A stretch of DNA of 64,000 nucleotides, from NCBI GenBank assembly GCA_034003585.1, contig JAVEYH010000002.1:32036-96035 (forward strand). Reading direction: 5' to 3'. The position numbers were made by a program, and so were the translations under genes. Every line of letters begins with the position of its first letter. Positions within the stretch are counted from its first letter, which is position 1. This DNA comes from Kiritimatiellia bacterium (GTDB lineage: Bacteria > Verrucomicrobiota > Kiritimatiellia > RFP12 > UBA1067). Below are positions 25,901 to 32,898 of this stretch, in pieces. The notes under the pieces were generated by a model. It searched no databases, had not been told where the DNA came from, and saw nothing but the letters and a program-made list of their open reading frames with translations.

Positions 25901-26684
25901 CGAGATCGAGGCGCGCGCGGCATCCCTCACCGCCGACATCCAGGCGCTTGGCCCCGTGAACCTGGTGGCGATCGAGGAGTACAAGGAGCTGGAGGAGCGG
26001 TACACCTTCCTCAAGGCCCAGGAGGAGGATCTGCTCAAGTCCAAAGAGCAGATCCTGGAACTGATCGCCATGATCAACAAGAAATCGGGCGAGATGTTCC
26101 AGTCCACCTTCGATCAGGCCAACGCCCATTTCGACACGATGTTCACCCGGCTCTTCAACGGCGGCCAGGCCAAGCTCGTGCTGCTGGAAAACGCCGAGGA
26201 TCCGCTCGAGTGCGGCATCGACATCATCGCCCGCCCGCCCGGCAAACGGCCGCAGTCAGTGACCCTGCTCTCCGGCGGCGAACGCACCATGACCGCGGTG
26301 AGCCTGCTCTTCGCGATCTTCCTGATCAAGCCGGCCCCGTTCTGCATGCTCGACGAACTGGATGCCGCACTGGACGACAGCAACATCGGGCGTTTCGTGC
26401 AAACCCTGAAAGACTTCCTGAAACACTCGCAGTTCCTGATCATCACGCACAACCAGCATACCATCGCCGGTTCGGATATCGTTTACGGCGTGACACAACA
26501 GGAGAAGGGCATCTCGAAGATCGTCTCGATGCGCCTCAAGGAGATCGGGGTCAAACCGTTGGCGCTGGGCGCGCCCGAGCCTGCGGCGGACGCGGTCTCG
26601 GCCGCGGAAGAGCCGCGGGCTCGGCGCGGCCGCAAAAAGAAGAGCGGGGACGCCGCCCCCGAGCTCAGCGCGCCAGCCGAATGA
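22977..26684 (+). CDS. smc: Chromosome segregation protein SMC.
   Basis: It is 1235 aa and begins [46 protein letters not shown] (Walker A). It has long coiled coils, a hinge and a C-terminal [17 protein letters not shown]...[11 protein letters not shown]. A basic tail sits at the C-terminus. Confidence 0.95.
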   Translation: [1235 protein letters not shown]

Positions 26685-27825
26685 TCTCCGCAACCTCGTG
26701 CGCGCCGAGATCGCCGTATTCGCCGATTTTCGCGCCGCGCGCGGCCAGCCGGTCCGCCACAACCACAGCGGCCTCTTCGGCGTCCACGCCATACTCGCCC
26801 AGGCGCGTCGGCACGCCAACCTCCCGGAAAAAAGCCTCCATGCGATCAATCGCCTGCGCGGCGCGCTCCGCCTCCGAACCCTCCGTGATGCCCCAGACAC
26901 GCGCCGCGCACTGGGCCAGGCGGGCCCGCTTGCGCCGGATCTGATGCCGGTGCACCGCCGGCATGATCACGGCCAGCGTGCGTCCGTGATCCATCCCGTA
27001 CCGTGCCGTCAGTTCGTGTCCGATCATGTGCGTCGCCCAATCCTGCGCCGCGACGCCGCAGCCCAGAGACCCGTTGAGCGCGACGGTGGCGCACCACATC
27101 AGGTTCGCGCGCACCGCGTACGCCTTCGGGTCCTGTTTCACCTTGGGCGCCTCTTCGATCAGGGTGAGCAGCACCGCCTCGGCCTGCCGCGCCACCAGCG
27201 GGGTGTCGTCCGCGCGGCACATGTACTGTTCCATCACATGCGCGAACGTGTCCGCGATCCCGTTCTCCACCTGCCGCATCGGCAGGGAAAAGGTCGTCTC
27301 CGGATCCAGAACCGAAAAGACCGGAAACACGAGCGGCGAACTGAACGCCAGTTTCTCGCGGCTCGAATCGCGCGTGATCACCGAAAAGCAATTCATCTCC
27401 GAACCCGTCGCGGGCAGCGTCATCACCGCGCCCAGCGGCAGTGCGCCCGTCACCGGGCTCCGCCCCTCCATGACTTCCCACGGGTCGCCTTCACCATACG
27501 CCGCCGCCACCGCGATGAACTTCACCGCATCCAGCACGGAACCGCCGCCCACCGCCAGCAGAAACCCCACGCCCGCCTGACGCGCCTGCGCGGCCGCCCG
27601 CATGCAGGTCTCGTAGCGCGGATTGGGCTCGATGCCGCCGAACTCGCACACGTCATGTCCGGCCAGCGCGGCCCGGACCTGATCATAGACGCCGTTCCGT
27701 TTGACGGACCCGCCGCCGTACACCAGCATGACCGGCACGTCTGCCGGAACCTCCTCGCGCACCCGCGCGATCATCCCCTTGCCGAACCGGATCCGCACCG
27801 GATTGAAATACGTGAAGTTTTCCAT
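26665..27825 (-). CDS. Iron-containing (group III) alcohol dehydrogenase.
   Basis: The ATG at 27825 (MENFTYFNPVRIRFGKGMIARV...) was verified and the track extension to 28044 rejected. Motifs GGGSVLDAVK and the His-rich metal site (HVMEQY...HMIGHELT) are present. It overlaps the smc 3' end tail-to-tail by 20 nt. Confidence 0.85.
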   Translation of the reverse strand: MENFTYFNPVRIRFGKGMIARVREEVPADVPVMLVYGGGSVKRNGVYDQVRAALAGHDVCEFGGIEPNPRYETCMRAAAQARQAGVGFLLAVGGGSVLDAVKFIAVAAAYGEGDPWEVMEGRSPVTGALPLGAVMTLPATGSEMNCFSVITRDSSREKLAFSSPLVFPVFSVLDPETTFSLPMRQVENGIADTFAHVMEQYMCRADDTPLVARQAEAVLLTLIEEAPKVKQDPKAYAVRANLMWCATVALNGSLGCGVAAQDWATHMIGHELTARYGMDHGRTLAVIMPAVHRHQIRRKRARLAQCAARVWGITEGSEAERAAQAIDRMEAFFREVGVPTRLGEYGVDAEEAAVVVADRLAARGAKIGEYGDLGAHEVAEIIRLAR

Positions 27826-27862
27826 GGTTTTTTCTTTCTTTTCCGCCGGACGCTTGTGTCGG

Positions 27863-31552: not shown

Positions 31553-32608
31553 CTATCGTTTCCCGACCGCGCGAGCGGCTTGCACCACATCCTCCACCGT
31601 CATCACCATGCCGCCCAGCCGGTTGCAGAGCGCGATGGGCTGAACGCGGCCGCCCTCTTTGGCCAGGTGCAGCAGCACATCATCCCGGAACTGGCCCGCG
31701 CTCAGCTCGACGGCCAGACCCCGGCGCCCTTCGAGCGCGGCGCACATCGCCGCGGCCGGGAACGGGTTCAGCGTGACGGGGCGGAACACGCCCGCGCGGA
31801 TTCCCTCCGCGCGCAGCGCTTCGGCGGCGGTCCGGCAGATCCGGCTGGAAATCCCGTAGGCGAGAAGCACCAGCTCGGCATCGTCGCACAGGTAGGTTTC
31901 ATGCCGCGCCTCCGCGCGCATCGCCGCATATTTGGCCTGCAGACGCAGATTGTGCTCCTCCTGCGCGGCGGCGTCCAGGTAGATCGAGGTGACCAGATGC
32001 GTGCGCGTCGCGGCGGTGCCGTGCAGCGCCCAATCGGAGGTATCCGGCCGCGGCGACTCGCGTTCCGGCAGAACCAGCGTCTCCATCATCTGTCCCAACA
32101 GCCCGTCCGCCAGCACGATCGCCGGAGTGCGGTAGGCGAAGGCCAGCCCGAACGCGCGCACAGTCAGGTCGCACATCTCCTGCACGCTCGCCGGGGCCAC
32201 CACCGCGCAGGCGTAATTGCCGTGGCCGCCGCCTTTGACCGCCTGGTTGTAATCCCCCTGCTCGGGATAGACGTTGCCCAGCCCCGGACCGGCGCGCATC
32301 ACGTTGACGATCACGCCGGGAAGATTCGCGCCCGCCATGTAGGAGAGCCCCTCCTGCATCAGGCTCATGCCCGGACCCGATGTCGCGGTCATGGCGAGCG
32401 TGCCCGCCGCCGCCGCACCGTAGACCATGTTGATCGAGGCGGTCTCGCACTCCGCCTGCAGGAACTCCCGCCCCACCGACGGGAACCACTTCGCCGCGGC
32501 GTGCGCGATCTCGCTGGCCGGCGTGATCGGATAACCGAAATAGACATCGCACCCGGCATACAGGGCACCGATCACCACCGCCTCGTTGCCTTTCACAAAT
32601 CGGGTCAT
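31553..32608 (-). CDS. 2-oxoacid:ferredoxin oxidoreductase alpha subunit.
   Basis: It is 351 aa and begins MTRFVKGNEAVVIGALYAGCDVYFGYPITPASEI, typical of Por/Vor/KorA. Confidence 0.85.
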   Translation of the reverse strand: MTRFVKGNEAVVIGALYAGCDVYFGYPITPASEIAHAAAKWFPSVGREFLQAECETASINMVYGAAAAGTLAMTATSGPGMSLMQEGLSYMAGANLPGVIVNVMRAGPGLGNVYPEQGDYNQAVKGGGHGNYACAVVAPASVQEMCDLTVRAFGLAFAYRTPAIVLADGLLGQMMETLVLPERESPRPDTSDWALHGTAATRTHLVTSIYLDAAAQEEHNLRLQAKYAAMRAEARHETYLCDDAELVLLAYGISSRICRTAAEALRAEGIRAGVFRPVTLNPFPAAAMCAALEGRRGLAVELSAGQFRDDVLLHLAKEGGRVQPIALCNRLGGMVMTVEDVVQAARAVGKR

Positions 32609-32652
32609 GCTGCTTCACTCCCGGGACGGGCCCGCGGCCCCGTCCGCTCGCG

Positions 32653-32898
32653 TTATTCGGGTTTCTCGATCCGGATCGCATACGGCTCCGGACAGTTGTA
32701 AAAACAGATGGCGCACCCCGTGCACCCCTCGCCCGCGTACTCCGCGGGTTTCACGCCGCGGCGGTTGAGCCGATCCGCAAGCCGCAGGCATTTCTTGGGG
32801 CACGCGTTCACGCAGCGTCCGCAACTTTTGCACTCGTCCGCGTCGATCACGGGACGCGGCCTGCCTTGCGGATTGGCTTTCTGCTCCTCTTCAGACAT
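32653..32898 (-). CDS. 4Fe-4S ferredoxin-type delta subunit of the oxidoreductase.
   Basis: It is 81 aa with two CxxCxxCxxxCP clusters (CKSCGRCVNACP and CTGCAICFYNCP). Confidence 0.8.
   Translation of the reverse strand: MSEEEQKANPQGRPRPVIDADECKSCGRCVNACPKKCLRLADRLNRRGVKPAEYAGEGCTGCAICFYNCPEPYAIRIEKPE

Follow-up and report, generated by a model that had tools for sequence, protein, structure and literature searches.

A six-gene Kiritimatiellia cluster that joins a VorABC-type oxidoreductase to a conserved XRE-cupin/Macs ligase pair, with a possible role in branched-chain acid salvage

Main finding

In a 64,000-nt stretch of DNA from an uncultured Kiritimatiellia bacterium (contig JAVEYH010000002.1 of GenBank assembly GCA_034003585.1), hereafter the window, in which position 1 is the first letter, we found six co-oriented open reading frames (ORFs) on the minus strand that encode, in order, a ferredoxin, the alpha subunit and a beta-gamma fusion of a 2-oxoacid:ferredoxin oxidoreductase (OFOR), an XRE-cupin protein, an AMP-forming acyl-CoA ligase and an alcohol dehydrogenase (ADH) of the Fe-ADH family. 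The cluster brings together two conserved modules, a three-polypeptide VorABC-type OFOR and an XRE-cupin/Macs ligase pair, which appear to be joined in one transcription unit. The explanation we favour, with a confidence somewhat better than even, is that the cluster serves the anabolic salvage of short branched-chain acids, which would pass through their acyl-CoA esters and be reductively carboxylated to the 2-oxoacid precursors of Ile, Val and Leu.

Under this explanation, the ligase would spend ATP, releasing AMP and PPi, to convert an exogenous short branched-chain acid, most likely 2-methylbutyrate and perhaps isobutyrate or isovalerate as well, to its CoA thioester; the OFOR, supplied with reduced ferredoxin and CO2, would carboxylate the acyl-CoA to 2-oxo-3-methylvalerate, 2-oxoisovalerate or 2-oxoisocaproate; and these 2-oxoacids would be transaminated to Ile, Val or Leu. 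The XRE-cupin protein would be a repressor that acts locally, senses a ligand, probably with the help of a metal, and accompanies the ligase gene, and the YqhD-type reductase would be a dispensable accessory, one that we speculate might clear aldehyde side products. By scavenging the branched-chain fermentation acids of their community in this manner, uncultured, polysaccharide-degrading Kiritimatiellia could cut the cost of biosynthesis.

We favour the anabolic direction because an AMP-forming ligase adjoins the OFOR and because the cluster holds no gene for a phosphotransacylase, a kinase or an ADP-forming ligase. An AMP-forming ligase beside an OFOR has been argued to mark the biosynthetic direction, in contrast to oxidative VOR/IOR clusters, where a phosphotransacylase is paired with a kinase or the ligases are ADP-forming (PMC13285125). 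In M. ruminantium, the formation of isoleucine from 2-methylbutyrate by reductive carboxylation is the accepted route (PMC2812497).

A preliminary description of this DNA, made from the sequence without database searches, had proposed that a module with a local regulator of the cupin type interconverts carboxylic acids and 2-oxoacids; that core idea holds, as do its gene content and ligase type, whereas its views that the subunit fusion is unusual, that the regulator is oddly placed and that the substrate cannot be read do not. Every component belongs to a known kind (VorABC-type OFOR, Macs ligase, XRE-cupin local regulator, YqhD-like ADH), and the cluster is ordinary but neatly assembled, both of the features flagged as unusual being standard for their enzyme families. 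The practical value of the analysis is in annotation; current understanding is not overturned.

The features of the cluster, all on the minus strand, are as follows.

32899..32999, minus: 5' leader, from the sulfatase stop to the ferredoxin start; ribosome-binding site GAGGAG and a weak sigma-70-like match
32653..32898, minus: ferredoxin, delta subunit (VorC-like), 81 aa, two predicted [4Fe-4S] clusters, Fer4_7
32609..32652, minus: ferredoxin-alpha spacer with the GC-rich hairpin GGACGGGGCCGCGGGCCCGTCC
31553..32608, minus: OFOR alpha, VorB type, domains I and II, 351 aa, POR_N and PFOR_II
30128..31543, minus: beta-gamma fusion, whole ORF, 471 aa, PF02775 and PF01558
30794..31543, minus: beta part of the fusion, residues 1-250, thiamine pyrophosphate (TPP)-binding domain VI and predicted proximal [4Fe-4S] cysteines
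30680..30793, minus: Pro/Ala-rich linker between beta and gamma, residues ~251-288, sequence RQAAAQPRPAAAPAPSVEAFFGASAQHPVPEA
30128..30679, minus: gamma part of the fusion, residues ~289-471, domain III, PF01558
29549..30100, minus: XRE-cupin protein, 183 aa, GTG start, HTH_31 and Cupin_2
27863..29533, minus: predicted Macs-type AMP-forming short/medium-chain acyl-CoA synthetase, 556 aa, AMP-binding and AMP-binding_C
26665..27825, minus: predicted YqhD-type Fe-ADH, NADP-dependent alcohol dehydrogenase/aldehyde reductase, 386 aa from an internal ATG, Fe-ADH and ADH_Fe_C
26645..26661, minus: terminator-like hairpin and T-run, CGGGGGCGGCGTCCCCG CTCTTCTTTT, a consensus match only

The ORFs and Pfam matches bear out the gene content, the coordinates, the spacers (44, 9, 27, 15 and 37 nt when recomputed) and the tail-to-tail arrangement with smc that had been described before. 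The layout fits co-transcription of the six genes as one unit, since the spacers are short (9-44 nt) and no terminator-like site was found inside any of the five.

The oxidoreductase

The domains and motifs of the OFOR appear complete for a functional enzyme. The small delta ferredoxin, whose gene lies 44 nt upstream of that for alpha and stands upstream of alpha in every related locus, has two CxxCxxCxxxCP motifs and matches Fer4_7 in Pfam (E 2e-13); its best NCBIfam models are PorD, OGOR delta and PorD_KorD, every one of them scoring under its cut-off. The alpha chain matches POR_N (E 2e-54) and PFOR_II (E 9e-16), and it passes the NCBIfam subfamily model PRK07119, '3-methyl-2-oxobutanoate dehydrogenase subunit VorB' (480.3 bits; cut-off 399), and fails all of the 2-oxoglutarate models (203-275 bits against cut-offs of 411-579). 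Among solved structures, it is nearest to 1YD7 and to the alpha chain of 2-oxoglutarate synthase, 8YS5. In the beta part of the fusion, the cofactor motifs comprise GDG at residue 100, NN at residues 128-129 and Cys26, Cys29, Cys59 and Cys220, which by their likeness to solved beta chains are the probable ligands of the proximal [4Fe-4S] cluster.

The fusion itself is real: TPP_enzyme_C (PF02775) at residues 67-215 (E 7e-16) and POR (PF01558) at residues 299-461 (E 5e-33) lie in a single chain, so that the C-terminal half does match the gamma-subunit family. Solved beta chains (8YS5_C and 6N2N_B) align with residues 20-255 and solved gamma chains (3ON3, 8YS5_B and 9BT4_E) with residues 289-434, and neither Pfam domains nor PDB chains cover the linker at residues ~251-288. 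The fusion had been described as unusual for four-subunit enzymes, yet both Pfam domains occur in one chain of ~470 aa in all 120 homologues listed (down to 61% identity), among which '2-oxoisovalerate ferredoxin oxidoreductase beta subunit' is a common JGI name; the 100%-identical database entry is 'MAG: 2-oxoacid:acceptor oxidoreductase family protein [Kiritimatiellia bacterium]', where MAG denotes a metagenome-assembled genome. Beta and gamma also share an ORF at loci L001, L004-L006, L025, L031, L032, L039, L043 and L070. The genomes with this fusion include those of four Methanobacteriaceae (among them Methanobacterium oryzae DSM 11106), one deltaproteobacterial MAG and one verrucomicrobial MAG, whereas Thermincola and one Bacteroidales MAG keep the two subunits apart. 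The beta-gamma fusion is thus normal for this enzyme family.

By its sequence features, the enzyme is a VorABC-type (three-polypeptide) 2-oxoacid:ferredoxin oxidoreductase, and family naming together with genomic context suggests a preference for 2-oxoisovalerate and other branched-chain 2-oxoacids. Tersteegen et al. 1997 reportedly found the VorA subunit of the Methanothermobacter (Methanobacterium thermoautotrophicum) enzyme to be a beta-gamma fusion; we found no explicit statement of this in the open literature that we searched, and the number of vor genes and the Methanobacterium loci, which provide an indirect check, are consistent with it. Three genes, MTH703-705, encode the Methanothermobacter 2-oxoisovalerate synthase, which has been studied biochemically and described as anabolic, acting on isobutyryl-CoA and CO2 (PMC3087415); the OFOR described here, likewise of four-domain type, is also the product of three genes. 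The proteins of the four Methanobacteriaceae share 44-49% (ferredoxin), 54-55% (alpha) and 61-63%/41-43% (fused beta-gamma) identity with those of the window; the window enzyme differs in being bacterial and in the inverted order of its genes relative to the ligase pair. The VOR clusters of clostridia (C. difficile and C. sporogenes) resemble the present one in setting a branched-chain 2-oxoacid OFOR beside genes for handling acyl-CoA, but they are oxidative (Stickland), make ATP through PTB and a kinase, neither of which is present here, and keep beta and gamma separate. The classical reductive-carboxylation routes of the rumen and the Bacteroides IOR with its AMP-forming arylacetate-CoA ligase are also among the closest known systems, but this IOR belongs to another OFOR clade (IOR, with subunits E and F fused) and another ligase family, and its substrates are aromatic rather than branched-chain as proposed for the window enzyme.

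The ligase

That the substrate could not be read from the sequence, as the preliminary description held, proved too pessimistic. The ligase aligns over its full length with MacsMa of Methanosarcina acetivorans (PDB 3ETC; 766 bits, 57.8% identity) and is assigned on this basis as a Macs-type orthologue, in keeping with the medium-chain type proposed earlier. When residue roles in the acyl pocket and the CBAL-like CoA pocket of MacsMa are taken from PMC10455477, the window ligase conserves Trp259 of the acyl pocket, Lys256, Cys298, the YxTGD motif and the CoA-pocket residues Gly459, Tyr460, Arg490, Tyr525 and Tyr527, whereas Lys461 of MacsMa is replaced by Arg. The preferred acid of MacsMa is 2-methylbutyrate, the only one with which it carries both half-reactions through (PMC10455477), and orthology suggests the same preference for the window enzyme. 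The best NCBIfam model is MbcS (NF047394), and we rejected equivalence with this S. aureus methylbutyryl-CoA synthetase because the score of 433 bits falls below the cut-off of 850. What the genomic context would supply for the window ligase is a physiological role, that of feeding the OFOR.

The regulator-ligase pair

To place the ligase in a wider context, we used a ligase-alignment scan with one genome per species and searched the 80 loci returned with the window proteins by tblastn. Of these loci, 73 extend far enough upstream of the ligase gene to be evaluated, and at 68 of the 73 an XRE-cupin gene immediately precedes it on the same strand (median spacer 23 nt); the taxa represented are Bacteroidales, Clostridia, Spirochaetia, Planctomycetota, Holophagaceae, Ignavibacteriae and Methanobacteriaceae. 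The XRE-cupin gene is therefore the first gene of a conserved regulator-ligase module placed after the OFOR genes, and its position in the middle of the operon, noted earlier as an oddity, reflects two modules laid end to end.

Related Kiritimatiellia loci display the seam between the modules. L005 has the three-gene OFOR core alone; at L004 the ferredoxin, alpha and beta-gamma genes are followed by a gene for a membrane protein of ~750 aa; and at L006 the same core is followed by the XRE-cupin and ligase genes and then by a membrane protein 64% identical to that of L004. Because these homologous membrane proteins bracket the pair, the pair behaves in Kiritimatiellia as a two-gene insertion/deletion downstream of the ferredoxin-alpha-betagamma core. 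The membrane proteins (L004, 11461-13719; L006, 9785-11884; ~700-750 aa) contain no Pfam domain and have no homologue in the window.

In at least four unrelated lineages, the pair stands next to a VorB-type OFOR, and three arrangements occur: the vor genes precede the pair in Kiritimatiellia, the pair precedes the vor genes in four Methanobacteriaceae and one deltaproteobacterium, and in Thermincola the pair is followed by another gene and then by vor genes with beta and gamma split. Such recurrent adjacency is hard to explain without selection. Since the pair docks recurrently beside VorABC-type enzymes, we suggest that feeding a VorABC-type synthase is a physiological role of the Macs family, which is known biochemically and structurally. 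The near-universal pairing of XRE-cupin and Macs genes across two domains of life, docked in different amino-acid biosynthesis clusters, is an observation that comparative genomics can test. At the Thermincola ferriacetica locus (L009, 4188-13142), a sigma-54 activator gene and a PTA_PTB gene are followed by genes for the XRE-cupin protein, the Macs ligase, a 227-aa protein, ferredoxin, alpha, beta and gamma; both directions may be in use there, because a phosphotransacylase is present alongside the AMP-forming ligase.

The XRE-cupin regulator

The XRE-cupin protein has the features of its family, an N-terminal XRE-type helix-turn-helix (HTH) and a C-terminal cupin within ~180 aa, and it is paired with an adjacent metabolic gene. 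It matches HTH_31 (E 7e-10), HTH_3 and Cupin_2 (E 2e-18) in Pfam. Across 75 orthologues, spread over Bacteria and Archaea, His127, Glu131 and His165 are invariant, whereas conservation is poor in the HTH recognition helix. When 26 orthologues were combined into a profile, its best match was the V. cholerae HTH-cupin regulator 1Y9Q, over both domains (E 7e-12), and its second the HTH-cupin epoxidase HppE, over its full length and with the His-Glu-His triad aligned (E 6e-10). A single-sequence AlphaFold model was unusable (mean pLDDT 35.7). XRE-cupin factors are local inhibitors of neighbouring metabolic genes with which they form transferable units (PMC7901475), and the simplest reading is that the window protein is likewise probably a local, metal-assisted, ligand-sensing repressor. 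It shares its arrangement of an N-terminal HTH_3/31 and a C-terminal cupin with 1Y9Q and with the Pseudomonas factors (ErfA, PsdR, PauR, PA0535 and others), but in 1Y9Q the first position of the triad is not His, unlike the invariant His-Glu-His of the window group.

Visual inspection by taxon of the regions upstream of the XRE-cupin gene revealed a palindrome of the type TTGTCATTAACAA only in Methanobacterium, where it is a candidate lineage-specific operator. Some 100-130 nt upstream of the gene, L032, L039 and L043 share AAATTGTCATTAA(C/T)AATCATTA, with the palindrome TTGT-N5-ACAA in two of the three. When the ferredoxin upstream regions of Kiritimatiellia loci were aligned, conservation was found between close relatives only.

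One could also envision that the XRE-cupin partner senses carboxylates or 2-oxoacids through a metal centre, or might even be an enzyme, and that together with the ligase it forms a portable 'acid salvage switch' for use in different amino-acid biosynthesis clusters, docking to VOR here and in methanogens and to arginine/proline (arg/pro) genes in Bacteroidales. This idea draws on the alignment of the invariant triad with HppE and on co-inheritance with Macs-type ligases across Bacteria and Archaea, and we consider it a long shot.

The alcohol dehydrogenase

The ADH aligns over its full length with E. coli YqhD (PDB 1OJ7; 413 bits), with which it shares the Fe-ADH and ADH_Fe_C domains, and JGI names its homologues 'NADP-dependent alcohol dehydrogenase'; it differs in falling under the cut-off of the YqhD equivalog model PRK15138 (472 bits; cut-off 645) and in being dispensable to the nearest relative. 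The closest relatives, L001-L003, lack an ADH gene after the ligase gene and match the window at 86-96% identity in the other five proteins, whereas a more distant Kiritimatiellia genome (L090, GCA_964610015.1) has all six genes together with a converging smc, at 64-86% identity; there the start of the ADH gene overlaps the stop of the ligase gene. The 145-nt spacer between ligase and smc in L001 (8366-8510) retains fragments of the ADH gene, namely an internal piece encoding YGAGDPWEIMEGR and the 3' end (the last ~50 nt, ...GIIRLAR-stop), which can be aligned to window positions 26665-26715. In view of the six-gene L090 cluster and the remnants in L001, the ADH gene was ancestral to this subclade of Kiritimatiellia and has been lost by deletion in one lineage.

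We had considered that the ADH might be unique to the window genome and rejected this, as the gene follows the ligase gene in L090-L092 and has left remnants in L001. Among the 80 species loci, an ADH near the ligase is essentially absent by tblastn (one weak match, 33% identity), and the closest homologue (78%) lies in an unrelated genomic context. The ADH is a lineage-restricted and dispensable accessory. Conservation of the six-gene unit is confined to a narrow subclade of Kiritimatiellia, as in L090, and in the nearest relative the ADH is deleted.

Weighing the salvage explanation

Several observations weigh against branched-chain acid salvage as we have set it out. Related Kiritimatiellia (L004 and L005) have the OFOR core without the ligase. 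A VorB-type alpha gene lies within 10 kb of the ligase at only 7 of the 80 species loci, and at 24 of the 80, mostly Bacteroidales (B. xylanisolvens XB1A, for example), the pair is found inside an arg/pro biosynthesis cluster, so we rejected the proposition that the ligase is always linked to VOR; the ligase is not universally tied to VOR or to branched-chain acids. The nearest solved alpha and beta chains are 2-oxoglutarate-type enzymes, the VorB model is at the subfamily level only, and the Methanothermobacter VOR has a broad specificity, as judged from its reported 45% relative activity on phenylpyruvate (PMC13285125). No convincing regulatory site was found either: in a search for exact palindromes (half-sites of 5-6 nt, spacers of 0-12) in 73 regions upstream of the XRE-cupin gene, none was common to more than four loci, which fits the poorly conserved recognition helix, and in the window we found nothing convincing as an operator upstream of the ferredoxin or XRE-cupin genes and no convincing promoter.

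In the arg/pro clusters, the genes run on one strand in the order ArgR, a 194-aa protein, ArgG, ArgC, ArgD, ProC, the XRE-cupin/ligase pair, ProB, ProA and OTCase; such loci include L042, L056, L063, L067, L077 and about 19 others. We know of no described role for an acyl-CoA ligase in a cluster of this kind. Its products all derive from glutamate/2-oxoglutarate, and this context keeps alive a reading in which the logic of the cluster is the same and the acid is different, for example succinate, converted through succinyl-CoA to 2-oxoglutarate and then to Glu, Arg and Pro, or an arylacetate. Rumen Bacteroides and Prevotella are known to carboxylate succinate reductively to 2-oxoglutarate, and the likeness of alpha and beta to solved 2-oxoglutarate enzymes and the action of the Methanothermobacter VOR on phenylpyruvate point the same way. 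We regard a different acid as unlikely, since the one orthologue that has been characterised, MacsMa, favours 2-methylbutyrate and the window ligase retains its key pocket residue Trp259, since alpha passes the VorB cut-off and fails every 2-oxoglutarate model, and since Methanobacterium loci hold a second, distant OFOR (26-31% identity to the window alpha and beta) a few kb from the three-gene enzyme.

Alternatively, the cluster could be oxidative, as in the option of acid and alcohol end-products raised in the preliminary description: the OFOR would oxidise branched-chain 2-oxoacids derived from amino acids to acyl-CoA and reduce ferredoxin, the AMP-forming ligase would run in reverse, from acyl-CoA, AMP and PPi to acid and ATP, and the ADH would get rid of reducing equivalents in the form of alcohols. 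OFORs are reversible, an NADP-type ADH gene is co-oriented 37 nt downstream (and overlaps the ligase gene in L090), and a PTA_PTB gene lies just upstream of the pair and OFOR genes in Thermincola. In Syntrophus aciditrophicus, an AMP-forming acetyl-CoA synthetase reportedly runs backwards to make ATP. We rate the oxidative direction as the weaker one, because AMP-forming ligases such as that of the window normally favour thioester synthesis and because, by ORFs and Pfam, the cluster contains no gene for a CoA-acylating aldehyde dehydrogenase to link acyl-CoA with the ADH. The phosphotransacylase, kinase or ADP-forming ligases of characterised oxidative VOR/IOR clusters are missing, the closest relative has deleted the ADH gene and kept the other five intact, and the pair is found elsewhere in anabolic contexts, in methanogens and in the arg/pro clusters, the latter arguing against fermentation in their own right. 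We consider fermentation quite unlikely.

Least probable of all is that the modules are mere neighbours, the OFOR serving general 2-oxoacid metabolism and the pair being an unrelated cassette that landed downstream: the mobility of the pair between L004 and L006, the solitary OFOR core of L005 and the lack of a nearby OFOR for most ligase pairs would suit it, but the adjacency recurs across lineages and arrangements, the 27-nt spacer between the beta-gamma and XRE-cupin genes has no terminator-like site, and, in chemical terms, one enzyme yields what the other consumes.

Transcription signals and neighbouring genes

At the distal end of the cluster, the terminator-like hairpin lies directly 3' of the ADH stop and within the coding sequence of smc (22977-26684, plus strand), which converges on the ADH gene so that the 3' ends overlap by 20 nt (26665-26684). 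At the proximal end, a promoter scan gave one weak sigma-70-like match, TTGACG-18-AATCAT at 32994-32965 in the leader, which is at chance level (one found, 0.8 expected); the proximal ~75 nt of the leader are conserved with L001. The GC-rich hairpin of the ferredoxin-alpha spacer is present in the window and in L001, and in L090 (~1858-1903) a different hairpin-capable sequence, ACGAATgttgATTCGT, occupies that place. The minimum free energy of the window hairpin, -19.2 kcal/mol, is no better than that of shuffled sequences (z-score -0.09, not significant), and it may be nothing. An Rfam scan of 26000-35600 at E<=1 returned no element. A Rex-box scan had been proposed for this cluster, and the Rex operator TTGTGAAnnnnTTCACAA has no match at three or fewer mismatches across the whole window.

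A sulfatase gene (PF00884; 33000-34643, minus strand) stands between the MazG and ferredoxin genes. At L001-L004 and L090 it is not at the syntenic position, MazG there directly preceding ferredoxin, and its GC content at third codon positions is 0.71-0.72 as compared to 0.83-0.86 in its neighbours. The syntenic absence and the lower value suggest that the sulfatase gene is a recent insertion ~75-100 nt upstream of the ferredoxin start. Farther upstream, acetyl-CoA carboxylase carboxyltransferase subunits (ACCA and Carboxyl_trans domains) are encoded at 36929-38647, 4 kb from the cluster, and a TolC-like/HlyD/AcrB efflux set at 38869-44672. Beyond smc, an ORF of 1767 aa lies at 17485-22788, and the equivalent position in L001-L003 holds a 1758-aa PATR-domain protein.

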